A DNA stretch of 46,944 nt from Alphaproteobacteria bacterium UBA3637 (lineage in GTDB: Bacteria; Pseudomonadota; Alphaproteobacteria; CAAHEQ01; UBA3637), in assembly GCA_002373615.1 (NCBI GenBank), contig DFKU01000040.1, positions 1 to 46,944 on the forward strand, in the 5' to 3' direction. The notes under the pieces are model-generated. The model was not told where the DNA came from. It was given only the letters and a program-made list of their open reading frames with translations, and searched no databases. The position numbers and the translations under genes are program-made. Below are positions 1-46,944 of this stretch, in pieces; the stretch's first letter is position 1, and every line of letters begins with the position of its first letter.

Positions 1-364
1 TCATGGCGGAATTATAGCCCGCTATCCCTGCGACACTCAAGACGCCCATCACCGCCAGGACACCCAGCATTTCCACCATACTGCGGCCACACTCACCCGT
101 CATTACGAGCCCACCTTTTTTATATCCCGTCATTGCGAGCCCGATAGGGCGTGGCAATCTGCCAGAGATTGCTTCGTTGGCAAGGCCGCCTCGCAATGAC
201 AATGAAGGGGTAGAACGCCCATACTTCTCTGTCATCCTTGGGGCAGCGTCAGCTGAACCCGAGGATCCAGCGGTATGTAGAACCTTATTTCCTACCAGAT
301 TCTCGCTTACGCAAGAATGACAAATCGAATTAAAGTTCTTTTCTTTTTTTAATAAAATATTCAT
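1..364 (-). CDS. type IV pilin-like (class III signal-peptide-like) protein, paralog 1; 3' end runs off the window
   Basis: My own translation of the minus strand from the ATG at 364-362 (GGGAG upstream) stays open for 121 codons to position 1. It gives a 93-aa leader ending ...LVMTGECG, followed by RSMVEMLGVLAVMGVLSVAGIAGYNSAM. The same block occurs in the ORFs at 24668, 37060 and 41616. It is absent from the ORF track because no stop codon lies within the window. Confidence 0.6.
   Translation of the reverse strand, partial: MNILLKKEKNFNSICHSCVSENLVGNKVLHTAGSSGSADAAPRMTEKYGRSTPSLSLRGGLANEAISGRLPRPIGLAMTGYKKGGLVMTGECGRSMVEMLGVLAVMGVLSVAGIAGYNSAM
99..112. repeat. solo terminal half of the GTCATTGCGAG-type palindromic element
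   Basis: GTCATTACGAGCCC matches the terminus of the elements at 129-200 and 24696-24759. It lies inside the leader-peptide coding region of paralog 1. Confidence 0.5.
129..200. repeat. palindromic MITE/RPE-like element, family 1 (termini GTCATTGCGAG / CTCGCAATGAC)
   Basis: The terminal inverted repeats are at 129-139 and 190-200. There is an inner stem GCAATCT...AGATTGC. It is GC-rich relative to its surroundings. A second copy lies at 24696-24759. This copy is translated in frame within the paralog 1 leader. Confidence 0.7.
230..322. repeat. palindromic MITE/RPE-like element, family 2 (termini TGTCATCCTTG / CAAGAATGACA)
   Basis: It has imperfect terminal inverted repeats. Related copies are at 24788-24842 (partial) and 46891-46944 (cut by the window end). 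It is in frame within the paralog 1 leader. Confidence 0.65.
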
Positions 365-376
365 TTTAAACTCCCG

Positions 377-580
377 TAAAAAATTTTTTTCGCCTTGATA
401 AGAGGCGGTTGGAAGCTCGAAGCACTATCGTTTGGAATAGCGTTGCATATTTGGGAATACTCCCTTATTTTACAACCTTCCAACCGATATTTGAAATCAA
501 TTGGAAATCTATGTCTGTACACCAGACAAACCAAACGTTAAAGGACTTCGAATCCTCCGCACCGGCATCACCCGCTGTGC
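377..580 (-). promoter_or_regulatory. structured 5' leader RNA (type C) with terminator/antiterminator, upstream of pilin-like paralog 1
   Basis: Minus-strand promoter is TTGACA (plus-strand coordinates 610-615), a 17-nt spacer, then TATGAT (587-592). RNA GGUUGGAAG (plus coordinates 477-485) is perfectly complementary to CUUCCAACC (407-415), which abuts the hairpin CGCCU-loop-AGGCG (391-407) and an A/U tract. It shares the GGUUGGA(A/U)GG-N3-UAAAAUAAGGG core with the leaders at 23546 and 41408. Confidence 0.55.
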
Positions 581-628
581 AAATGTATCATATAAAATCC
601 GAAAAAATCTGTCAAGGAAAATTTGAAA

Positions 629-805: not shown

Positions 806-847
806 ACAAAAAATCCCCCTATCAGGGAATTTAAATGGCGGGATTGA
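806..847. repeat. direct repeat copy overlapping the true 3' end of tRNA-Asp
   Basis: Partner of the repeat at 629-672. It includes the last 12 nt of the tRNA (TCAATCCCGCCA on the minus strand) and the CCCT-GAT-AGGG hairpin with T-run. Confidence 0.7.
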
Positions 848-913
848 AGGGGCTCGAACCCTCGACCTTCTGCGTGACAGGCAGACGCTCTAAACCAGCT
901 GAGCTACAACCCC
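836..913 (-). tRNA. tRNA-Asp (anticodon GTC)
   Basis: Hand-folded cloverleaf on the minus strand. Acceptor stem is GGGGTTG/CAATCCC, D arm GCTC-AGCTGGTTTA-GAGC, anticodon arm TCTGC-CTGTCAC-GCAGA (GTC), T arm GAGGG-TTCGAGC-CCCTT. Discriminator is G and CCA is encoded. Confidence 0.9.
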
Positions 914-23198: not shown

Positions 23199-23545
23199 TT
23201 TATTTTCCTTTCTGTCAAAGTTGTTTTCATCATTCTTGTTCTTAAGTATTAAAATTCAAATTACTTAAATTTTAATTTCTTTTATTTTTACATTTTCAGC
23301 GTATTTATTTTTATAAAAAAAGTCAAGTTGATTTTTTTATTTTTACTTCTTTAAAATTGGGGTTAAAGTAAAAATAAAATACTGCATCCGTTTCCTCTTA
23401 AGCGCCCAAAAGGTGCTTTTATTTTATAATCTGAGTGTAAGATAAATTGATGTCGGAATTGGTACAAGTCAAAAGTCTAACTGATAAAAAAATTATCGTT
23501 CGTTTTAATATTGCTTTTTTTATTTTCTTTTGCTAAAATACTTCT

Positions 23546-23719
23546 GCCCGAGAGGGTGGGGTGTGATAGCCTCTCTCAATACGTCCAGCAGGACGAAGAT
23601 CTTCAATCGGTAAAGTCCGGTTGGATGGCCGCTAAATAAGGGACTTTGTCTTGAATAGGTGGCACTATTTATTGAGTAGTTATCACCTCCAACCACTTTT
23701 TGGGTGGTTTAATTTTTTT
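23546..23719 (+). promoter_or_regulatory. structured 5' leader RNA (type A1) with terminator/antiterminator, upstream of a small lipoprotein gene
   Basis: Promoter is TTGCTT at 23511-16, 17-nt spacer, TAAAAT at 23534-39. A helix pairs AAAGUCC (23612-18) with GGACUUU (23641-47). GGUUGGA(U)GG at 23619-28 is complementary to CCUCCAACC at 23686-94. That segment overlaps the terminator stem AACCAC/GUGGUU, which is followed by a U-run at 23710-19. A near-identical copy lies at 44200-44376 on the minus strand. Confidence 0.6.
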
Positions 23720-23730
23720 CAAGGAGTATA

Positions 23731-23916
23731 ATGATGAAAAAACTATTTTTAATTTTAATCGCGTTTGCTTTGACGGGGTGCACCTATGCGGGGCCCTTTG
23801 TGACACATATATCACAAAATAAAGATGGGAGCTTAACTGTGGAAAAATGTATGGTGGAACACAATGCTTTTTCTGGGGCCATCGCCACCACAAATTGCAC
23901 CCAATCTAAAGTATAA
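23731..23916 (+). CDS. small lipoprotein (61 aa), paralog of 44004-44189
   Basis: Lipobox LTGC. The mature part begins CTYAGPFVTHISQNKDGSLTVEKCMVEHN...TTNCT, with 3 conserved Cys. It has an AAGGAG RBS. Confidence 0.75.
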   Translation: MMKKLFLILIAFALTGCTYAGPFVTHISQNKDGSLTVEKCMVEHNAFSGAIATTNCTQSKV

Positions 23917-23981
23917 TTTCTTTTTAAATCCCCTCCCCCCATTTAAACAGCATAGGCTTAATAAAAAATGAAAGGAAAAAA

Positions 23982-24482
23982 ATGAAAAAATTATTATTGC
24001 TTTCTTGTTGTTTATTGGGGGCGTGTGCGACAACCCCTGATAGGATTGAAACCCCGATTTATAAGACTGTGGGGGATAAAGATCAAATTGGGACAGTTAC
24101 CTTTTATGACACCGCTCAAGGCTTAAAAGGCGTTGTAAATTTATCTGAATTGCCCGTTGGGGAACATGGATTTCATATTCATGCGATTCCCGATTGCGGT
24201 TCTTTGGATGGAGAGCCTGCCATGAAAGCGGGGGCTCATTATGATCCAGCTCAGACCGGAAAACACTTGGGGCCCGATGGGGATGGACACAAGGGTGACC
24301 TGCCCCGTTTAATGACGGATGATGAAGGGCATGTCAGGACTGCCTTTTATGCGCCACATCTCACTTTACAGGAAATTAAAGGGCGTTCTGTTGTCATTCA
24401 TGAATTTGGGGATAATTATGCGGATACACCCCGTCCACAAGGCGGTGGCGGTAAACGCATTGCCTGTGGGGTAATAAAATAA
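23982..24482 (+). CDS. sodC: Cu/Zn superoxide dismutase, lipoprotein form
   Basis: Lipobox LLGAC, plus GFHIH, HKGDLP and GGGGKRIACGVI. Confidence 0.93.
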   Translation: MKKLLLLSCCLLGACATTPDRIETPIYKTVGDKDQIGTVTFYDTAQGLKGVVNLSELPVGEHGFHIHAIPDCGSLDGEPAMKAGAHYDPAQTGKHLGPDGDGHKGDLPRLMTDDEGHVRTAFYAPHLTLQEIKGRSVVIHEFGDNYADTPRPQGGGGKRIACGVIK

Positions 24483-24528: not shown

Positions 24529-24567
24529 CACTTACAATTTCAAAAAGAATCTGAGTATAATGAGGGC

Positions 24568-24645
24568 GTCTGCCTGAATAGGTAAGACTATCTACTTTCT
24601 ATATAGTTATGAACATCCACTCACTGAAACAGTGAGTCTTTGTTT
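24568..24645 (+). promoter_or_regulatory. truncated copy of the leader RNA family (3' half only) upstream of pilin-like paralog 2
   Basis: Promoter is TTACAA at 24532-37, 18-nt spacer, TATAAT at 24556-61. UGAAUAGGUAAGACUAU and CAUCC, then the hairpin CUCACUG-aaa-CAGUGAG (24620-36) and UCUUUGUUU, match the 3' part of the A/B leaders. No upstream partner for CAUCC is present. Confidence 0.45.
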
Positions 24646-24667: not shown

Positions 24668-25036
24668 ATGGACATGAAAAATAGAAAAATAAATTGTCAT
24701 TGCGAGCCCATCAGGGTGTGGCAATCTCACGAGATTGCTTCACATACGTTCGCAATGACGGGTGAGTGTGGGCGTTCTAGCCCCACCTGTCATCCTTGGA
24801 CGAGCGTCAGCGAGATCCGAGGATCCACTGGACGTGGCCTTAACGTACCTCGTTGTGCACAATACGCACAATCCGGGCGCAGTATGGTGGAAATGCTGGG
24901 CGTCCTGGCGGTGATGGGCGTCCTCAGTGTTGCGGGCATCACGGGCTATAATTCCGCTATGAATAAGCATCGCGCCAACGAGCTCTTAAACGAGGCCTCC
25001 AAACGCGCCGCACCTGTCGCCATGCATTTGATGTAG
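24668..25036 (+). CDS. type IV pilin-like protein, paralog 2 (short; possibly truncated or pseudogenised)
   Basis: A 70-aa leader ends in SG, followed by RSMVEMLGVLAVMGVLSVAGITGYNSAMNKHRANE... The ORF stops only about 52 aa after the putative cleavage site. The leader contains two palindromic elements in frame. Confidence 0.5.
   Translation: MDMKNRKINCHCEPIRVWQSHEIASHTFAMTGECGRSSPTCHPWTSVSEIRGSTGRGLNVPRCAQYAQSGRSMVEMLGVLAVMGVLSVAGITGYNSAMNKHRANELLNEASKRAAPVAMHLM
24696..24759. repeat. palindromic element family 1, copy 2
   Basis: GTCATTGCGAGCCC...GGCAATCTC-AC-GAGATTGC...TTCGCAATGAC, translated as CHCEPIRVWQSHEIASHTFAMT. Confidence 0.7.
24788..24842. repeat. palindromic element family 2, partial copy
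   Basis: TGTCATCCTTGG...GCGTCAGC..GA.CCGAGGATCCA matches the left part of 230-322. Confidence 0.55.
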
Positions 25037-27497: not shown

Positions 27498-27762
27498 TTT
27501 AATTTCCTTTCTGTTATTTAATAAAATTTGAAAGTTGACGAATTCATTATACACAATAAAAAACAAAAAAGCAAGCACTGTCATAAAAATGTCATAAATC
27601 TTCAAATGTGCTGAAAAATATGGCGTTTAAAGTTAGTCCTATTTTTCTTTAAAAATTTTTTTAAAAATATTTTTTATCAATTATGTCAATTTTATGACAC
27701 ATAAAAAACGGATTTAAAATTCTTTTCTTGACAGGGGGACCATTTTCGGGTACCATAGGGAT

Positions 27763-27913
27763 GCATTTTGATTTTGGTCAAAATGTCGGGTCTGAAAAAT
27801 CCGTACAATCTATCCGTCCAGAATCGGGCGGATGACCGCCCAATAAATTGAATAAGTGGTACTATGATTGTATAGTTTTTCAGCATCCGTCCACTAAAGC
27901 AGTGGATTTTTTT
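27763..27913 (+). ncRNA. orphan copy (type B1) of the structured leader RNA family; no downstream plus-strand gene
   Basis: Promoter is TTGACA at 27728-33, 17-nt spacer, TACCAT at 27751-56. Helices are GAAAAA/UUUUUC (27794-99 with 27876-81), UACAAUC/GAUUGUA (27804-10 with 27866-72), and the hairpin GGGCGG-AUGA-CCGCCC (27826-41). GGCGGAUG (27827-34) is complementary to CAUCCGUC (27884-91), which overlaps the terminator UCCAC-uaaagca-GUGGA plus U7 (27890-913). Confidence 0.6.
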
Positions 27914-27997
27914 AATGGCACATATGGGCGGTGCTGGCTGAATAAATTGAATAGGTCAGAGGTTTTTAATAGGACTAATACATTGAACGCCGCCCGC

Positions 27998-28222
27998 CTA
28001 ATTCACTTCTTTAAAATCCACATCAATCACATCATGGGCGTGAATCGGGTGATGACGCGTACGGTGTTTGCGAACGCGCGTTCTTATGTGGCCTTTCAGG
28101 CGTCTTAGTGCCCCCAATAAAACAGCGATAATTAAAATTGGAATGGCCACATACCATAGCGTCAAAAACATGAACATCAAAAATAAAGCCGATAAAATGA
28201 TGGAAAAAAGCTGGTAAATCAT
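27998..28222 (-). CDS. small membrane protein (hypothetical)
   Basis: 74 aa with two hydrophobic helices and a basic/His-rich tail. Its start overlaps the mutS stop by 4 nt, which suggests translational coupling. Confidence 0.55.
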
Positions 28223-30855: not shown

Positions 30856-32238
30856 ATGAAAAAAAAGAAAGTAAAAATCTTTAATCATTTTGGAAAATTG
30901 GCCGCACGGACTTTGATTATCAACATTCCGGCGTTGCTGATTTTACTGATTTTATTGTTGTTAAAGAAATTGACCTGGATTTCTGCCAGTATTTCACTTT
31001 TTTCTTTTTGGACAATCAGCGCTATTATCATTTTCTTTGTTTTTAAGGACTTGGATAATTTTATTGCTTATTTAAAAAATGCTTCACAAAATTTGGATGT
31101 GGAACTCCCCCGATTCCGCAAAGGCTTTTTTTCTTCGGCCAGATTGGCCAACACATTCCAAAGCCTGCAAAACGCATGGCAACAAAAAACGCAAACAGGG
31201 GTTCATATTTTGGAAAATTTACCAGATCCGCTTTTAATGGTGAATGAAAAAGAAATGGTTGTTTTTGCAAATAATTCCGCTCGTAAAATTTGGTCAGAAG
31301 CTGCTGTCGATTTTAATGTCAGTGTGTTGTTTTCGGATCTGCATTTTACAAAAGCTTTTCAAGAATTGGTTCATAAGAAGACTCCAAAAGCCACCATTGA
31401 ATGGCAAACAACTTTAAACCAAAAGACATCTTATTATTTGGTCCAGATGGAACGCCTGCCATCCGCCAGCTTTTTGGAGGCCCTTTATGTGGTTGTTTTG
31501 CATGACATTACCCCATTCAAAGCCTTTAAGCAGCGTCAGGCCGATTTTTTTGCGAATGCCAGCCATGAACTCAAAACACCTTTAGCTATTTTATCAGGTG
31601 TCATTGAAACTCTACAAGGCCCCGCCAGAGATGATACAAACGCCCGTGAAAAGTTTTTAAATTTAATGGCAGAACAAACAAATCATATGAATGAATTGGT
31701 TCAAAATTTATTGAAGTTGGCCCATATGCAACAAGAAAAACTCCCTATCACTGAGCCTGTTTTGGTGGGAGAATTATTAACGGGACTGGTAAATGATTTT
31801 CAAATACGCGCCGAAAAAGCAGGAAAAGAAATTATTTTGGAAAAAGAAAACTTGCCCCGTTTGATGGCCGGACGCGCCGATTTGTACCATGTTTTTCAAA
31901 ACTTACTGGATAACGCTTTAAAGTATGGGCAAGAAAAATCCCCTATTACTATCAAGGCTTTTTTAAAAAACACCCCGCAAAAAGATTTTTCTTTGTTCGA
32001 TAAAAATGAATGGATTGTTGTCAGTATTCATAATTTTGGGAAAGCTTTGACCACCGAGGAACAAGAAAAGATTTTTGACCGTTTTTATCGCGTTAACTCC
32101 ACCCAAAAAGTGGAAGGAACAGGCTTGGGGTTAAGTATTGTTCAACACCTGGTCCAAAAGTATGATGGCACTGTGGAAGTCATCAGCTCTCCAGAATCAG
32201 GGACAACTTTCACGGTTTCTTTTCCCTTGGAATTTTAA
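30856..32238 (+). CDS. two-component sensor histidine kinase (PhoR-like architecture), no adjacent response regulator
   Basis: Two transmembrane helices, a PAS-like segment, the H-box [13 protein letters not shown], and N/G boxes ([19 protein letters not shown]). Confidence 0.85.
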
Positions 32239-32543
32239 TTGCTCACTAAAAACTCTTTTAACAGCTTCACTATTTCTTCTTGCATGGCCTGAGGAAGTGA
32301 GCCGATTTTTTTCGTTAAATGCTCTTTTGCCATAGGACGCATTAAATCCAAAGCAATTTGTCCCATTTGTCCTTTTAATTTTACCCCTACACGGCAAGGA
32401 AAGTTATGCTTCACGTTCGTAATTGGGGCAATCAAAACATAGGGAAGTAGCTCGTTCATTTCATTTGGAGACAAAACAATACAAGGCTTTTCACCCCCCC
32501 GAATTTCACACATAAAAACATCAAATTTTTTTACCATTCCCAT
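32235..32543 (-). CDS. mazF: MazF/PemK-family type II toxin (mRNA interferase)
   Basis: 102 aa with PCIVLSP...LIAPITN...IALDLMRPMAKEHL, the typical PemK pattern. It overlaps the antitoxin gene. Confidence 0.8.
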   Translation of the reverse strand: MGMVKKFDVFMCEIRGGEKPCIVLSPNEMNELLPYVLIAPITNVKHNFPCRVGVKLKGQMGQIALDLMRPMAKEHLTKKIGSLPQAMQEEIVKLLKEFLVSN

Positions 32544-32749
32544 TCTCCTTCTGCTTTTACGGGATGCGCTTGCACCTCATCCGCCAATAATTCCTTCCAC
32601 CCCAAACGTGGTTTGACCAGTGGTGTAATGACAACAGCCCCTTGACGTACATTTAAATTCAGTTCTTCCTTAAAACCACATTCTTCAATGATTGCTTTTG
32701 GGAAACGTACCCCAAAAGAATTGCCAATTTTGATCAGCTTTGTTTTCAT
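32531..32749 (-). CDS. mazE: AbrB/MazE/SpoVT-family antitoxin
   Basis: 72 aa with the IKIGNSFGVRFPKAII swapped-hairpin motif. Confidence 0.8.
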   Translation of the reverse strand: MKTKLIKIGNSFGVRFPKAIIEECGFKEELNLNVRQGAVVITPLVKPRLGWKELLADEVQAHPVKAEGEWEW

Positions 32750-41407: not shown

Positions 41408-41591
41408 GAATCAAGCAGGTGCTTGGTTCGGCTGGGCGTAAGACCCCTGCAAAGTTGCTGATAAAGCGTAAAAACTGCCTTTTAGTTCAAAGGACTGGAA
41501 GGCAGGTAATAAAGGGCCTTTCAGGGCTTTTAATAACTGCGCATAACTTTGTAATGTCTTAACTTCCAGTCGCTGATAGCGACTTTTTTTA
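41408..41591 (+). promoter_or_regulatory. structured 5' leader RNA (type D) with terminator/antiterminator, upstream of pilin-like paralog 4
   Basis: Candidate promoter is TTGCGC at 41373-78, 17-nt spacer, TAGTGT at 41396-401. GACUGGAAG (41493-501) is perfectly complementary to CUUCCAGUC (41563-71). That segment overlaps the terminator AGUCGC-ugaua-GCGACU plus U7 (41568-91). The core GGACUGGAAGGcagGUAAUAAAGGG parallels the leaders at 377-580 and 23546-23719. Confidence 0.55.
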
Positions 41592-41615: not shown

Positions 41616-42212
41616 ATGAGTAAAAGTCAAAAGAAGAACGAACAAGGACGGTCCATGGTGGAAATGCTGGGGGTTTTAGCGGTGATCGGTGTCTTGAGTG
41701 TCGCAGGCATTGCAGGGTATAATACAGCCATGCGGTCACACAAAGCCAATGAAGTTTTGAATGCAGCCAGTATGTTTTATGTGCTAGCAAAAGCCCAAAA
41801 TCAGGGGAATGGTCCAAGTGGTAATATAAACTATGCTGATGTGGGTGGTACAAATCCATCAGGGGCAACCCTCACCTACACAGACAATGCTTTCACCATC
41901 ACTTTCACGGATACGGATGATTGCACCATGGCCGCGAATAAGTTGGGTGACAAGGCAACTACTGATTGTACCAATAAAAAATTAACCGTTAACTTCGGGG
42001 AAACAACAACATCCCAAACACCAGAAGAACCTCAGGAAGATTTAACAATTGTAGACATGCAAGACGGAAATTGTCCTTCTGGATATAAACCTACAGGGAT
42101 AGATGATAAGTGTGCTAAATCATTAACAGATGCAGCAAAGCTATGTTCAAGCGGATGCGCGCAAGATACACCACTAGAATATGCTTGCGTTGATTCCAGT
42201 TATTGTCTATGA
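41616..42212 (+). CDS. type IV pilin-like protein, paralog 4 (archetype with short leader), with Cys-rich C-terminal module
   Basis: MSKSQKKNEQG/RSMVEMLGVLAVIGVLSVAGIAGYNTAM. This is a short basic leader ending in Gly, with Glu at +5 and a roughly 20-aa hydrophobic helix. It continues with a small beta region, an acidic/Pro linker (TPEEPQED), and a C-terminal module with 6 Cys. It has an AAAGGA RBS. Confidence 0.7.
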   Translation: MSKSQKKNEQGRSMVEMLGVLAVIGVLSVAGIAGYNTAMRSHKANEVLNAASMFYVLAKAQNQGNGPSGNINYADVGGTNPSGATLTYTDNAFTITFTDTDDCTMAANKLGDKATTDCTNKKLTVNFGETTTSQTPEEPQEDLTIVDMQDGNCPSGYKPTGIDDKCAKSLTDAAKLCSSGCAQDTPLEYACVDSSYCL

Positions 42213-42271: not shown

Positions 42272-44014
42272 ATGCCTATCCGATTACTCCCCCAAAATCT
42301 TGTCAATCAAATTGCTGCCGGTGAGGTGGTGGAACGCCCCGCCAGTGCCATTAAAGAATTGATTGAAAATGCGATTGATGCGTGTGCCACCCAGATTGAT
42401 GTGCGCTTGGAAAACGGGGGAAAGACCTTTTTTTCGGTGGCGGATAACGGAAAAGGCATGAGTCAAGAGGAACTGCCTGTTGCCATTCAAAGACATGCGA
42501 CCAGTAAATTGCCCAAAGATGACCTGTTAGACATCAATTTTTTGGGCTTTCGGGGGGAAGCGCTCCCCTCCATCGCTTCTGTTGCCAAAATGACAATAAC
42601 CTCACGCACAGCGGATTCGGACACAGGTTGGCGGTTAGAGGTAACGGGCGGCATTACCGAAAAGCCCTGCCCTGCCCCACGCGCCCTTGGGACAACGATA
42701 GAGGTCCATAACCTCTTTTACAATGTCCCTGCCCGCCTTAAATTTTTAAAATCCGATCAAAGTGAGCAAGGGGCCATCAGGGAAGTCTTTGATCGCTTGG
42801 CGATGGGGAACCCAGAAATTACTTTTTCTTTGGCCACAGAAAATAGGAAACTCGCCCATTATCCCGCAACAGAAAGCCTGTTTGACCGTGTCGCTATGGT
42901 AATTGGGCATCAATTTAAAGAAAACGCCCTGCCCGTTCAGGCAGAATATGAAGGGATAAAATTGGCGGGCTTTGTGGGCCTGCCCACCTATACGCGCGCC
43001 ACCAGTACAGAACAATACTTATTTGTCAATGGGCGCTCGGTCAAAGATAAAGTGTTGTTGGGTGCGATTCGGGGCGCTTATCAAGGTTTAATGGGGCATG
43101 GCAGTGAGGGGCACCCTGTCCTTGCCCTATTCCTGTCTGTTCCAAAAGATAAAATTGATGTCAATGTGTCGCCCGCCAAAACAGAAGTGAGATTTGCCGA
43201 GGCCGGACGAATTCGGGGATTATTGGTCGCCAGTATCCGAAATGCTTTGGCGGAACACGGGCAAAAGACCGCAAGTACCATTTCTATCGGGGCTTTGGAT
43301 ACCTTTATTCCCCGTGAAACACCTATGGCCTATTCGGCACCGGTGCGTCATACGCCTGTCCAACATACTTTCAATTTACAGGACTCTTATCAGGTTAAAA
43401 AGGAAGTATCCGCCCCTACCCCCGTGGTTGAGGATGACTTTCCGCCGTTGGGCCTGGCCAAAGCGCAAGTCCATAAAACATATATTATTGCCCAAACAAA
43501 AGAGGGCTTTGTGGTGGTGGATCAACACGCGGCGCATGAACGGCTGACCTATGAAAAAATGATGGCCAATTTTGGCGAACACCCGCAAACACAACTGTTG
43601 TTGGTGCCTGAAATTATCGATTTAAAGCCGGAAGAAGTGGCCCTATTAAATGCGCGTGCGCCCGAATTAAAAGAAATGGGCTGGGTGATTGATCCCTTTG
43701 GGGCGGATTCTGTGGCGGTCAGGGAACTCCCTGCATTACTTGATAAAACAGATATTCAAAAGACCATTCAAGATTTGGTGGATACCCTGCGCGCCTTTGA
43801 TGATACCGTTTTATTAAAGGATAAAATGAAAGATATTTGCGCGCGCATGGCGTGCCATGGATCGGTCAGGGCCGGGCGTGTTTTAAATCTTGATGAAATG
43901 AATGCCCTTTTGCGTCAAATGGAGGCCTGTGGCACCTCAGGTCAATGTATCCACGGGCGCCCCACCTATATTGAACTCAAATTAAAAGATATTGAAAAAT
44001 TGTTTAACCGATAA
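42272..44014 (+). CDS. mutL: DNA mismatch repair protein MutL
   Basis: GHKL N terminus NQIAAGEVVERPASAIKELIENAIDA and a C-terminal dimerisation region; 580 aa. Confidence 0.95.
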   Translation: MPIRLLPQNLVNQIAAGEVVERPASAIKELIENAIDACATQIDVRLENGGKTFFSVADNGKGMSQEELPVAIQRHATSKLPKDDLLDINFLGFRGEALPSIASVAKMTITSRTADSDTGWRLEVTGGITEKPCPAPRALGTTIEVHNLFYNVPARLKFLKSDQSEQGAIREVFDRLAMGNPEITFSLATENRKLAHYPATESLFDRVAMVIGHQFKENALPVQAEYEGIKLAGFVGLPTYTRATSTEQYLFVNGRSVKDKVLLGAIRGAYQGLMGHGSEGHPVLALFLSVPKDKIDVNVSPAKTEVRFAEAGRIRGLLVASIRNALAEHGQKTASTISIGALDTFIPRETPMAYSAPVRHTPVQHTFNLQDSYQVKKEVSAPTPVVEDDFPPLGLAKAQVHKTYIIAQTKEGFVVVDQHAAHERLTYEKMMANFGEHPQTQLLLVPEIIDLKPEEVALLNARAPELKEMGWVIDPFGADSVAVRELPALLDKTDIQKTIQDLVDTLRAFDDTVLLKDKMKDICARMACHGSVRAGRVLNLDEMNALLRQMEACGTSGQCIHGRPTYIELKLKDIEKLFNR

Positions 44015-44189
44015 TATCGGTTGTGCAATTTTTGGTAGAAACTGTACCCAAAATATTATGCTCCATCATACACTTTTCAACCTTTAAGTCCCCTGATTTT
44101 GTACGCGAAATATTGGTGACATAAGGCCCGGCATAGGTGCACCCTGTCAAAACAAACACGATAAAAATTAAAAATAGTTTTTTCATCAT
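44004..44189 (-). CDS. small lipoprotein (61 aa), paralog of 23731-23916
   Basis: I moved the start to the ATG at 44189 (MMKKLFLIFIVFVLTGC, AAGGAG RBS). The mature part is CTYAGPYVTNISRTKSGDLKVEKCMMEHN...TKNCT. Its 3' end overlaps the mutL stop region by 11 nt in a convergent arrangement. Confidence 0.75.
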   Translation of the reverse strand: MMKKLFLIFIVFVLTGCTYAGPYVTNISRTKSGDLKVEKCMMEHNILGTVSTKNCTTDIIG

Positions 44190-44199
44190 TATACTCCTT

Positions 44200-44376
44200 A
44201 AATAAAATTTAAACCACCCCAAAAGTGGTTGGAGATAGGAAACTACTCAATAAATAGTGCCACCTATTCAAGACAAAGCCCCTTATTTAGCGGCCATCCA
44301 ACCGGACTTTACCGATTGAAGATCTTCGTCCTGCTGGACGTATTGAGAGAGGCTATGATACCCCACCCTTCCGGGC
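44200..44376 (-). promoter_or_regulatory. structured 5' leader RNA (type A2), near-identical copy of 23546-23719
   Basis: Minus-strand promoter is TTGCAA (44406-11), 17-nt spacer, TAGAAT (44383-88). The reverse complement aligns almost base for base with A1. The GGGACUUU to GGGGCUUU change keeps pairing as a G-U wobble. The terminator is CCAACCAC-uuuu-GGGGUGGUU. Confidence 0.6.
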
Positions 44377-44419
44377 AAGGCTATTCTAACACAAACAAAT
44401 ATAATTTGCAAGACAATAA

Positions 44420-44685
44420 TGAGAGTGGATAACTTTGGGATAACTGGGGATAACTTGGGATAAAAAAATTTCATCAAAATATTTTTCAGAATTTATTCTT
44501 TTTTATACACAGATAAAAAGAAGAATTTTTCAGCCTTATACGATTCGCCCATCAGACCTTTTATTGCCCTAAAAAAAACGATTCGTTTTAAACTTAAAAT
44601 TCCTGTCAACAAAAATAAGAAAAAGTTTTCCACATTATCCACAGGGCTACTAAAACAACTATATTTATTATATAAAAAAGGAAAA
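44420..44685. other. oriC: candidate chromosomal replication origin (oriC): DnaA-box cluster plus AT-rich tract
   Basis: Four GGATAA-core boxes begin at 44427, 44438, 44448 and 44458, spaced 11, 10 and 10 bp apart; the first reads AGTGGATAA. A very AT-rich stretch spans 44461-44620. Tandem boxes TTTTCCACA (44626-34) and a perfect TTATCCACA (44635-43) follow. Four parS sites lie 4-5 kb away. Confidence 0.45.
44626..44643 (+). promoter_or_regulatory. tandem DnaA boxes (TTTTCCACA TTATCCACA)
   Basis: The second 9-mer equals the consensus TTATCCACA. The first matches 8 of 9 positions. Confidence 0.6.
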
Positions 44686-45552
44686 TTATTTTTCCGGCTC
44701 AAGATGAATCATAATCTCAGCTTCTGGGTAAATTTCGTGAATCAGGCCTTCGGCTCTATCAGCAATGATATGTGCTTTGGTAAGAGGCATTTGCCCATCC
44801 AGAATCAAAGTCATTTGGATGAACATTTGTGTTCCTGATAAACGTGTCCGTAAATCCTGAATGGATTTCACTTCTTTTAAAGTGTGGACTTGTGATTTTA
44901 TTTTTTGCCCAACTTGTTTCGGCAGTTCTTCATCCATCAACATCGCCACCGAAGCGCGCAAAATATAAAAGCTGCTTTTTAATAAATACAAGCTGACACC
45001 AATTCCGAATAAGCTATCCACCCATCCAATAGCAAAAGTGGTGCTGAAAATCAAAGAGGCTAATACGCCCAAATTCATCATTAAATCGCCGTTATAATGG
45101 GCATTGTCGGCTTGGATAGAAAGCGAGCCTGTCTGGCGCACGACAAAGGCTTGAAAACGTGTGAGAAGGACAGTTAAAATTAAAGTGATAAAGATAATCC
45201 CAATGCCCAACAGGGAATGCGTTGGGCTTTCATGACGCCCCAAATGCAGGGCGGATTCAAAGGCTAATAAGAAAGCGGAACCCAATAAAATCAGTCCTTG
45301 AATAAGGCTGCCGATTCCTTGCGCTTTTCCATGGCCAAAGCGGTGTTCTTTGTCGGCCGGTTGCACGGATTGACGGACGGAAACAAAATTGATAAAAGAA
45401 GTCATTAAATCTTGGATGGAATCAAACAGGCTGGCCAATATTGCGACGGAAGCCGTCATAAAAAAAGCCACTGTTTTTAACAAAATCAAAATGCCTGCCG
45501 TTAAAACGGAAGCGACGGATGCCCACATCATCAATTTATTTTTATTTGTCAT
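44686..45552 (-). CDS. cation diffusion facilitator (CDF) family divalent-metal efflux transporter
   Basis: Six transmembrane helices with FDSIQD (TM2) and HYNGD (TM5) metal-site motifs, and a C-terminal cytoplasmic domain. Confidence 0.88.
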   Translation of the reverse strand: MTNKNKLMMWASVASVLTAGILILLKTVAFFMTASVAILASLFDSIQDLMTSFINFVSVRQSVQPADKEHRFGHGKAQGIGSLIQGLILLGSAFLLAFESALHLGRHESPTHSLLGIGIIFITLILTVLLTRFQAFVVRQTGSLSIQADNAHYNGDLMMNLGVLASLIFSTTFAIGWVDSLFGIGVSLYLLKSSFYILRASVAMLMDEELPKQVGQKIKSQVHTLKEVKSIQDLRTRLSGTQMFIQMTLILDGQMPLTKAHIIADRAEGLIHEIYPEAEIMIHLEPEK

Positions 45553-46575: not shown

Positions 46576-46668
46576 GGTTGTCTTTTTGTTATTTTTTTAT
46601 CAGCGCTTTTTTATAAAAGTGTAAGTATTTTGTTTGACATTTAAAATAATTTTGATTATTCTGAAGTG

Positions 46669-46820
46669 GCACTTGGCAAGGGCCAATGTGCCGGATTTGA
46701 AAAGTCCGTATAGTGTTGTCCGTCCTGTATTGGATGGATGACCGTCCAATATAATGAATAAACGGTACTGTCACTATACAGCTTTTCAACATCCGTCCAC
46801 TTTTAAAAGTGGAATTTTTT
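46669..46820 (+). promoter_or_regulatory. structured 5' leader RNA (type B2) with terminator/antiterminator, upstream of pilin-like paralog 5
   Basis: Promoter is TTGACA at 46634-39, 17-nt spacer, TATTCT at 46657-62. Helices are GAAAAG/CUUUUC (46699-704 with 46782-87), GUAUAGUG/CACUAUAC (46708-15 with 46772-79), and the hairpin UUGGAUGG-AUGA-CCGUCCAA (46730-49). GGAUGGAUG (46732-40) is complementary to CAUCCGUCC (46790-98), which overlaps the terminator UCCAC-uuuuaaaa-GUGGA plus a U-run (46796-820). Confidence 0.6.
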
Positions 46821-46848: not shown

Positions 46849-46944
46849 ATGGACAAATTATTAAAAAAAGAAAAGAATTTAAATTCGATTTGTCATTCTT
46901 GCGTAAGCGAGAATCCGGCAGGAAATAAGGTCCTACATACCGCT
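46849..46944 (+). CDS. type IV pilin-like protein, paralog 5 (5' end only; runs off the window)
   Basis: The sequence from the ATG at 46849 (AAAGGA RBS) is MDKLLKKEKNLNSICHSCVSENPAGNKVLHTA. By hand alignment, 87 of 96 nt are identical to the reverse complement of 269-364 (paralog 1). Membership in the pilin-like family is inferred from that homology only. Confidence 0.45.
   Translation, partial: MDKLLKKEKNLNSICHSCVSENPAGNKVLHTA
46891..46944. repeat. palindromic element family 2, copy cut by the window end
   Basis: TGTCATTCTTGCGTAAGCGAGAATCCGGCAGGAAATAAGG... matches the reverse complement of 230-322. Confidence 0.6.

Follow-up and report, generated by a model that had tools for sequence, protein, structure and literature searches.

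We examined a 46,944-nucleotide (nt) stretch of contig DFKU01000040.1 from Alphaproteobacteria bacterium UBA3637 (the window) and found a family of structured RNA elements ahead of small lipoprotein and pilin-like genes, with at least eight modules in 47 kb and 10 more in related metagenomic contigs; 17 full copies and three partial ones were counted. Based on comparison of the copies and on modelled folds, we propose with moderate confidence that the element acts in cis as a transcription attenuator that is OFF by default and derives its parts from a c4-type antisense-RNA module. A sigma-70-type promoter is predicted to start an RNA of about 150-210 nt, in which a 5' hairpin would be followed by two target segments, b1 (in the loop of a small hairpin) and a1, then by segment (1), a c4-like domain and a terminator. 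The c4-like domain would comprise segment (2), hairpin P5, whose loop holds the conserved AAUAR...GAAUAR, another hairpin with a' in its loop, a linker b' and segment (3). When a' and b' pair in cis with a1 and b1 (helices P3 and Pa), segment (1) would hold segment (2), segment (3) would be free and the terminator would form; transcription would end 11-35 nt ahead of the ribosome-binding site (RBS), with release of a discrete small RNA. Were that pairing blocked, segments (2) and (3) would close on each other, no terminator would form and polymerase would enter the lipoprotein or pilin-like gene. Actual termination and read-through, and the trigger, are the parts of this model that we infer.

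The initial annotation had reported two near-identical copies of about 175 nt at 23546-23719(+) and 44376-44200(-), here wA1 and wA2 (A-type), each before one of two paralogous genes for 61-amino-acid (aa) lipoproteins. This was confirmed by blastn, which gave 93.6% identity across 173 nt. In a pairwise alignment the mean column identity was 91% when promoters and the 5' ends of the open reading frames (ORFs) were counted, and similarity collapsed 5' of the -10 box. Read at 23400-24100(+) and 43800-44520(-), both copies had a common layout of AT-rich promoter, structured stretch of about 175 nt, terminator hairpin, T-run, AAGGAG (1-2 nt after the T-run) and ATGATG (11 nt after it). The element had also been credited with a promoter of its own, and a consensus scan listed TTGCAA-17-TAGAAT for wA2; the extended -10 promoter of wA1 was read from the sequence and was not listed by the scan because its -35 box matches only 3 of 6 positions. 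The terminator AACCAC/GTGGTT with its T-run, followed by the RBS and start codon within 11 nt, was likewise found in both copies, and terminators were located by the consensus scan in those copies that were checked (wA1, wA2 and the truncated wD).

Two alternative folds of the leader

The OFF fold begins with a 5' hairpin, which in A-type copies is GCCC-GNRA-GGGU with GAGA, GGAA or GAAA as the loop. Its core is a long interrupted helix of ext, Pa (b1:b') and P3 (a1:a'), inside which helix P4 pairs the CCGUCC-like segment (1) with segment (2), GGNNGGAUG. In the A-type P4, segment (2) pairs with CGUCCAGC at 23582-23589, and the equivalent in copy L010 is UGUCCAAUU. The P5 loop carries AAUAR and GAAUAR, often around a small hairpin, and the terminator completes the fold. 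The P5 loop measured 15-30 nt and, among the 17 copies, the second-hairpin loop 4-18 nt, the latter varied in sequence (GAUUGU, CACUAU, UAAUCAU). The same architecture was recovered independently by single-sequence minimum free energy (MFE) folding of 15 copies.

The long-range helices Pa and P3, which dominate the structure, were absent from the initial annotation, as was the relationship to c4 and sRNA-Xcc1 RNAs described below. It had instead described a helix AAAGTCC/GGGACTTT. That helix is present, but in A-type copies only; it lacks informative covariation and clashes with the family-wide P5, GCCGCU/GGUGGC. As a family feature the helix AAAGUCC/GGGACUUU was not upheld; the consensus OFF fold pairs GGUUGGAUG with upstream CGUCCAGC. 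Two further pairings proposed there stood: GGUUGGAUG does pair with sequence overlapping the terminator, the segments covarying among copies, and the complementarity GGTTGGA(T)GG/CCTCCAACC exists as 7 bp plus 2 bp around a bulge.

In a model-made alignment of 10 copies, 94.6% of the cells of the OFF fold were paired and 24 of 40 pairs were changed on both sides. The covariation score was 0.552, compared with 0.205 for shuffled alignments (0/500 as high) and at most 0.098 with slid partners. Because this alignment was fitted to the model, the helices were also tabulated by hand in 17-18 copies; strands paired with their own partners at 95-100% of positions, versus 52-79% with another copy's strand. 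Pa and P3 were 99-100% paired in 18 copies, and compensatory change was seen in all eight P3 pairs and in 8 of 14 outer pairs. Two covariance models of the OFF fold, R1 and R2, were rejected as too narrow, as they missed the window copy wC and the copy at locus L023. As distant copies were also partly misaligned, we relied on hand curation and on a third model, R3, made from 17 ON domains only.

In the ON fold, segment (2) closes onto segment (3), CAUCCNNCC, and takes the 5' half of the terminator, with P5 kept. In all 17 copies, 2-5 nt of segment (3) also belong to the terminator's 5' arm, and segments (2) and (3) covary (GGUUGG/CCAACC, GGGUGG/CCACCC, GGRCGG/CCGUCC, GACUGG/CCAGUC). A small hairpin (CUAU/AUAG, CUGU/ACAG or CUAC/GUAG) forms around the 3' strand of P3. 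At the 5' end, ext5' forms a hairpin with the UCCG that follows Pa, and the 5' strand of Pa is exposed in its loop. In an unfitted MAFFT alignment of the 17 ON domains, 90.8% of cells were paired and 13 of 19 pairs were compensatory; the closing helix was 95.4% paired. The covariation score was 0.479, compared with 0.219 for shuffled alignments (0/500) and at most 0.153 for slid ones. As both folds covary, both appear to be under selection, and they are mutually exclusive.

The two folds were ranked by constrained folding of the 17 copies. The fold with the terminator forced was the MFE in 12 copies and lay within 1.6 kcal/mol of it in the other five, and forcing the antiterminator cost 7-26 kcal/mol more. 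Therefore, the default should be termination. Read-through would require that a' and b' be kept from a1 and b1, or that the closing helix be stabilised.

As in intrinsic-terminator attenuators, the element lies in a 5' leader and combines a GC-containing hairpin and U-run with an upstream pairing that excludes this hairpin. Like the classical attenuator leaders (riboswitches, T-box, RAT/LicT, ANTAR), it has a weaker antiterminator that shares nucleotides with the terminator, with segment (1) as the anti-antiterminator. Unlike them, it would be switched by two long intramolecular helices between antisense and target segments, not by a compact aptamer or protein-binding hairpin, and it gave no sequence or model match to riboswitch, T-box, RAT/LicT or ANTAR leaders. 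An ANTAR target was ruled out, as there are no two hexaloops with A1 and G4, and c-di-GMP and T-box readings were ruled out for lack of features and model matches. An internal promoter, TTGAAT-17-TATAGT, was also rejected; it fits the B-type copy wB1 only and is not conserved.

Relationship to c4 and sRNA-Xcc1 RNAs

At gathering scores, an Rfam scan of the window found only a tRNA, and no family reached threshold in E-value scans of the window (E up to 5) or of single copies (E up to 10). The recurrent best sub-threshold match was sRNA-Xcc1 (RF02221), with 25.3 bits for wB1 (E 0.014), 26.9 for wB2 (E 0.0055) and 21.8 for the copy at locus L001 (E 0.1), about half of the gathering threshold of 53 bits, which was not reached. 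The alignment spans the whole model (positions 1-87) and corresponds to the ON fold of these three copies. C4 antisense RNA (RF01695) was absent from all E-value scans of the window and single copies.

The fold of sRNA-Xcc1 and C4 was nonetheless recognisable in the element: a closing helix, two hairpins, an A-rich first loop of the GAAUA type, a variable second loop and a U-rich linker. As in C4, upstream a1 and b1 segments are complementary to a' and b' (helices P3 and Pa). In 15 of 17 copies the first three bases of segment (2) are GGG, GGA, GGU or GGC; L010b and wE have GAG or GAC there. In the 5' part, a hairpin and a small hairpin CGGAUUUGAAAGGUCCG with b1 in its loop weakly but recurrently match the CGGGUUUGGCAGCCCG hairpin of the c4-a1b1 motif (RF03163), at 10-17 bits against a gathering score of 46.7, which could be chance on a generic two-hairpin shape.

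BLAST of the Rfam sRNA-Xcc1 consensus against plasmids and phages gave no match, and a pattern derived from that consensus matched at least 120 loci in viral contigs. As in the c4 antisense RNA of phages P1 and P7, these loci have a closing helix and a first hairpin, here AUACAAUAC...GGAAUAA around a small inner hairpin. Their second-hairpin loop, a', is complementary to upstream a1 and b1 and to a2 and b2 at the RBS of the next gene, and the linker UUUUGAG (b') has complementarity like that of a'. The element maps one to one on the phage loci, with a' as the 3' strand of P3, b' as the 3' strand of Pa and the b1-a1 order kept. When R3 was run against 100 prophage loci (0.95 Mb), all of the top 28 hits (17.5-30.7 bits, E 0.002 to 2) were of c4/sRNA-Xcc1 type, and 8 of the 28 lacked the search pattern, including a short canonical form, GGUGGGUAUGGGAAUAUUCAAUACC.... 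Because the loci were pre-selected and the scores modest, we describe the relationship as distant and structural, probably reflecting homology, and do not claim membership.

Several of the prophage contigs (L061, L096, L086, L067, L065, L077, L107) carry two or three c4/sRNA-Xcc1-type RNAs; some have an sRNA-Xcc1-type RNA with a short canonical C4-type RNA about 200 nt further downstream. RF02221 and RF01695 therefore look like variants of one fold which occur together in immunity regions.

Motifs of the c4 type are predicted in several proteobacterial orders. The c4 antisense mechanism is known from phages P1 and P7 (PMC5320573, PMC8198154). sRNA-Xcc1 is an 88-nt Xanthomonas RNA (PMC2996969); in integron cassettes it precedes symE (bioRxiv 10.1101/2025.06.18.660453), in APSE phages it precedes an ORF6N protein (bioRxiv 10.1101/2020.03.17.996009), and seven copies occur in Xylella (PMC12189769). 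The element shares with these RNAs a closing helix of about 9 bp starting with GG, often a small inner hairpin in the first hairpin, an AC(C) tail, b1-a1 target copies upstream, a position directly 5' of the accompanying gene and multiple copies in some genomes, and model searches in both directions connect the two sets. It differs in having an intrinsic terminator that shares sequence with the closing helix on its 3' strand, where the phage loci that were read had no such terminator, and in that segment (1) competes for the 5' strand. It also lies on an alphaproteobacterial chromosome rather than on a phage, plasmid or integron, and is partnered with lipoproteins and pilin-like proteins rather than with an antirepressor, Icd or SymE.

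Chromosomal families of c4-like small RNAs (sRNAs) are already known in Acinetobacter (PMC5320573). The Group 1 sRNAs of A. baumannii resemble the element in being a large c4-derived chromosomal family with copy-variable recognition loops; their closing stem begins with GGW, where RNase P cuts (PMC5320573). In contrast to the element, they are recognised by the Rfam C4 model and described as trans-acting sRNAs that undergo processing, and neither a terminator/antiterminator switch nor a fixed position before surface-protein genes is reported for them (PMC5320573). Literature searches returned no account of this alphaproteobacterial RNA family, of its link to lipoprotein and pilin-like genes, or of a terminator/antiterminator switch joined to a c4-type fold.

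Copies, partner genes and neighbourhoods

Further window copies were found by motif and similarity searches (Table 1). The initial annotation had noted motifs common to the A-type and B-type leaders, and the counts were above chance: GGATGRCCG occurred four times in the window versus 0.64 expected, and TGAATARGNGGYACT, at up to two mismatches, five times versus 0.8 expected, with as many in 0/100 shuffles. Four modules had escaped it, namely wC, wE, the truncated wD and a tandem c4-like domain next to wB1. The model scores of wD were weak (10.9 to 18.4 bits).

Table 1. Copies of the element in the window, their parts and adjoining genes; scores are from models R1, R2 and R3
Feature	Position	Strand	Details
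Element wC	378..588	-	5' of pilin-like ORF starting 364(-) with GRSMVEMLGVLAV; R3 63.8 bits for 485-403
wA1 promoter TTGCTT-17-TGcTAAAAT (extended -10)	23511..23539	+	Read from sequence; predicted start near G23546
A-type element wA1	23546..23719	+	R1 37-39 bits; R2 68.7; R3 79.6 for 23619-23698
wA1 GNRA hairpin GCCC-GAGA-GGGU	23546-23557	+	
wA1 ext5' UGGGG	23557-23561	+	
wA1 b1 (Pa 5' strand) GUGAUA	23563-23568	+	
wA1 a1 (P3 5' strand) CUCAAUA	23575-23581	+	
wA1 segment (1) CGUCCAGC	23582-23589	+	
wA1 segment (2) GGUUGGAUG	23619-23627	+	
wA1 P5 GCCGCU/GGUGGC	23628-23633/23658-23663	+	Encloses AAAUAA, small hairpin, UUGAAUA
wA1 a' UAUUGAG	23670-23676	+	
wA1 b' UAUCAC	23681-23686	+	
wA1 segment (3) CCUCCAACC	23686-23694	+	
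wA1 terminator AACCAC/GTGGTT	23691-23709	+	Consensus scan; U-run 23710-23719
wA1 RBS AAGGAG	23721-23726	+	
61-aa lipoprotein ORF after wA1	23731-23916	+	LTGC lipobox
Truncated copy wD	24553..24643	+	One AAUAG loop; segment (3) CAUCCACUC; terminator 24619-24637; 5' of pilin-like ORF 24668-25036
B-type element wB1	27758..27913	+	TTGACA promoter about 27 nt upstream; terminator UCCAC/GUGGA with U-run; R1 139 bits; OFF fold is MFE
Tandem c4-like domain	27926-27999	+	Closing helix, P5 with loop UGAAUAAAUUGAAUAG, second hairpin; R3 34.7 bits, E 6e-5
Element wE	41430..41590	+	5' of 198-aa pilin-like gene 41616-42212; R3 46.6 bits
61-aa paralogous lipoprotein ORF after wA2	44189-44004	-	LTGC lipobox
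wA2 terminator AACCAC/GTGGTT with T-run	44230-44212	-	Consensus scan
A-type element wA2	44376-44200	-	R3 79.3 bits for 44303-44223
wA2 promoter TTGCAA-17-TAGAAT with TG	44411-44383	-	Consensus scan
B-type element wB2	46663..46820	+	28 nt 5' of ORF from 46849, cut by window end

The tandem domain starts 12 nt past the wB1 terminator and has no promoter, upstream a1/b1 copies or terminator of its own. It would be transcribable only through read-through of wB1, and may be either a free antisense RNA that depends on such read-through or a second copy in decay. The putative loop of the domain, AAUAGGACUAA, has its complement, TTAGTCCTATT, at 27633-27643(+); about 0.6 such 11-mer matches are expected by chance.

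Outside the window, a pattern scan over genome and metagenome collections turned up B-type copies at L001, in a metagenome-assembled genome (MAG) with the label Alphaproteobacteria bacterium SIG60, and on four metagenomic contigs. One of these four, L007, carries an A-type copy that is identical to wA2 along its 5'-truncated length. Five other matches of that scan were set aside as chance. A descriptor scan of about 181 kb of loci gave no further convincing copies, against a background of about 2.6 matches per shuffled set.

Relatives of the 61-aa lipoprotein, which has a weak LPAM_1 match and no family in NCBIfam or Pfam, numbered only 13 among 5.8 billion proteins, and contigs were obtained for seven of them. 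One match (P0013, L016), on a GC-rich, phage-like contig without the element, was regarded as a false homologue. All six true orthologues had a family member directly 5' of the lipoprotein gene; the eight loci that carry this arrangement represent five distinct sequences and come from five differing neighbourhoods, among them 3' of rpmG, between rpmI-rplT and a VWA/BatD operon, and divergent from ychF. The orthologues at L017 and L019, 75% identical to those of the window, carry a B-like leader. Therefore, the A- and B-types are one diverged family, as had been claimed, and one covariance model finds both.

In the window, a Cu/Zn superoxide dismutase gene (23982-24482(+)) with a periplasmic product lies 3' of the wA1 lipoprotein ORF, with no terminator before 24497, and probably shares its transcript. 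The wA2 lipoprotein gene sits just downstream of a gene of the cation-diffusion-facilitator (zinc transporter) type (44686-45552(-)). These neighbours may hint at a metal or oxidative-stress link of the small lipoprotein.

The gene downstream of full copies encodes the lipoprotein in eight cases and a pilin-like protein in four, and a pilin-like gene also follows the truncated wD; such partners occur in the window, L001 and L023. Other copies precede an XRE-type regulator (L004), a secreted Cys-rich protein (L008) and a 151-aa protein with a weak SLOG match (L010b). The proposed control of secreted or surface proteins thus stands as far as the partners go, which are mostly lipoproteins and pilin-like proteins with one secreted protein, whereas regulation itself we infer. 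Full copies sit 20-140 nt 5' of a co-oriented ORF in 16 of 17 cases, unlike the generic dispersed repeat, with no bias toward gene 5' ends, that the initial annotation had named as refuting its reading. The RBS was within 11-35 nt of the terminator in 14 copies, a gap too short for a separate promoter.

For the pilin-like proteins, a sub-threshold N_methyl match was the only family match (NCBIfam, Pfam). The 198-aa protein after wE contains GRSMVEMLGVLAV, shows this sub-threshold match and has 3776 relatives; the N-terminus of the ORF after wB2 matches that of the pilin-like ORF after wC. A relative of the wE pilin-like protein at L023, 65% identical, carries a family member, and the homologue at L027 has no such leader. 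Relatives with 40% identity (L025, L026) have a different structured leader with a terminator. This leader, at L025 5440-5738 and L026 9700-10000 (GCA_017412085.1, an Alphaproteobacteria MAG), is about 200 nt long, with a TTGACA-17-TATACT promoter, long helices and a strong terminator, and was recognised by none of R1, R2 and R3. Leader-terminator control of pilin-like genes may be wider than the c4-like element family.

Four pilin-like ORFs (24668-25036(+), 2-364(-), 46849-46944(+) and L023 10001-10762) begin directly behind their leaders yet have long N-terminal extensions ahead of the GRSMVEMLGVLAV prepilin-like motif. The extensions are in-frame palindromic repeat units, cattgcgag...cgcaatgac (...SLRGG..LAMTG) and ctgaaacaagttcagaatgac (ILKQVQNDE). 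Either the true start is further downstream, or the leader peptide tolerates repeat insertions.

The window is otherwise ordinary chromosome (dcw cluster, mipZ, parAB-gidB, mutS, mutL). A second copy of the last bases of a tRNA gene (839-913, minus strand) and of the terminator of this gene (tcaatcccgccatttaaattccctgata...) lies about 170 nt further downstream, directly ahead of the wC promoter (645-672 and 815-842, minus strand), which looks like the attachment-site duplication left by integration at a tRNA gene. A MazF/PemK-type toxin gene (32235-32543(-)) has a histidine kinase gene on one side and an unannotated 443-aa ORF on the other, and a small ORF upstream of it (32531-32749) is a candidate antitoxin.

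Weighing the attenuator model

Several observations weigh against the attenuator model. The ON fold is far less stable, to the point that read-through may be rare unless a factor exists. Because of kinship among the copies, independent events are fewer than the covariation counts suggest. Similarity to c4 falls short of the Rfam gathering score, L008 and wA1 gave no RF02221 match, and the prophage contigs had been pre-selected with the sRNA-Xcc1 pattern. As a rule, c4 RNAs repress translation by way of downstream a2/b2 sites, and we found no cognate-specific ones here; complementarity of a'/b' to their own start region was 0.65 versus 0.63 for that of other copies, and 0.70 versus 0.69, so that the known c4 mechanism is not directly transferable. 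Finally, wB1 has no downstream ORF, and the genes at L001 and L008 start 60-140 nt past the terminator; because of this, some copies may act mainly as free small RNAs.

That last point leads to the alternative that the elements are mainly genes for free trans-acting c4-like sRNAs, like sRNA-Xcc1 or Acinetobacter Group 1, whose a' and b', once the discrete RNA is opened or processed, would pair with mRNAs elsewhere; adjacency to the gene would then reflect no more than the traditional placing of a c4 module ahead of the gene with which it arrived. Consistent with this, each element has a promoter of its own and a terminator that looks efficient, the MFE fold is the terminated one, the orphan wB1 is followed by a terminator-less c4-like domain, and the closest relatives are multi-copy sRNAs processed by RNase P (PMC2996969, PMC5320573, PMC12189769). 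A P5 loop rich in A-R-N triplets and a U-tail, both typical of Hfq-binding sRNAs, point the same way. We nevertheless consider it unlikely as the main role, if worth taking seriously, since the terminated RNA sequesters a' and b' by its own a1 and b1 in strongly covarying helices, and a plain sRNA gene would need neither the overlap of segment (3) with the terminator in every copy nor the covarying (2):(3) pairing. Moreover, the element travels with the lipoprotein gene across differing neighbourhoods, with no room for a separate promoter between terminator and RBS. The two roles are compatible. More doubtful is a metabolite- or ion-sensing riboswitch, in which the P3-P4-P5 junction, or the three-way junction of the ON fold with its AAUAR/GAAUAR loop, would bind a ligand. 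Covarying helices and invariant unpaired nucleotides in a conserved, structured domain, the terminator/antiterminator overlap and the location in the 5' untranslated region would all suit a riboswitch, and second-messenger riboswitches typically partner surface-protein genes. Yet no known riboswitch family in Rfam, c-di-GMP-I/II included, matched single copies even at E up to 10 or the window at E up to 5, and the partner genes suggest no metabolite. The Pa and P3 sequences differ among copies in one genome, as a/b specificity determinants would and an aptamer would not, and the best structural relatives are antisense RNAs rather than aptamers.

Two further readings carry little weight. A dispersed repeat or mobile-element remnant with incidental hairpins and no regulatory role would fit the multiple copies (eight modules in 47 kb), the decayed or truncated wD and 27926-27999, and a genome in which other palindromic repeats are common. 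It is very improbable given that compensatory differences among copies preserve two folds, that the promoter is 5' and the terminator 3' in the same order in all, with 16 of 17 facing an ORF start, and that there are no associated terminal repeats, target duplications or transposase. Still less credible is ribosome-mediated attenuation by a leader peptide, in which the AUG of GGAUG would open a mini-ORF ending at the UAA or UAG of AAUAA/AAUAG. Most GGAUG copies do have an in-frame stop in the conserved loop motif, but an A/U-rich loop closes two of three frames by chance and L004 lacks an early stop. The AUG of segment (2) is missing in four copies (wC, wE, L023 and L010b, with GGAAG or GGAUU), no Shine-Dalgarno sequence is suitably spaced, and the ORFs lack conservation, the 24-codon ORF of wB1 not being kept in wB2. 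We therefore rejected the leader peptide.

For the attenuator that we favour, four candidate triggers may be listed in a tentative order of preference: a trans RNA with matching a' and b', for example from read-through transcripts, or a processed c4-like RNA, that would occupy a1 and b1; an RNA-binding protein such as Hfq on the A-rich P5 loop; an RNase P cut at the GGN start of segment (2); and, last, a small ligand. A bolder version, which we regard as a long shot, is that each copy is an orthogonal, self-propagating RNA switch giving heritable, bistable, gene-by-gene expression of the pilin-like and lipoprotein genes, that is, phase variation without DNA change. Here the free a' and b' of an ON transcript would capture a1 and b1 of the next nascent transcript at the same locus before that transcript's own a' and b' are made, forcing it ON, and OFF transcripts would be self-closed and inert. 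The a/b sequences would be copy-specific, and the origin would be a domesticated phage immunity RNA.

To date, c4-type RNAs have been phage immunity repressors and abundant chromosomal sRNAs of unknown role in Acinetobacter. Here a c4 fold appears in an uncultured alphaproteobacterial lineage, whose host bacterium, going by sample names, probably lives in gut or rumen, wired to a terminator and built-in targets ahead of many surface-protein genes. Compact and modular, the element could serve as an engineered RNA switch. As sRNA-Xcc1 is likewise located just upstream of genes, that family gains a testable cis-regulatory reading. If the model is true, the element would represent a new attenuator design, with antisense RNA and target in one leader and specificity drawn from two short, exchangeable segments, and a phage regulatory RNA would have been domesticated for control of the cell surface.

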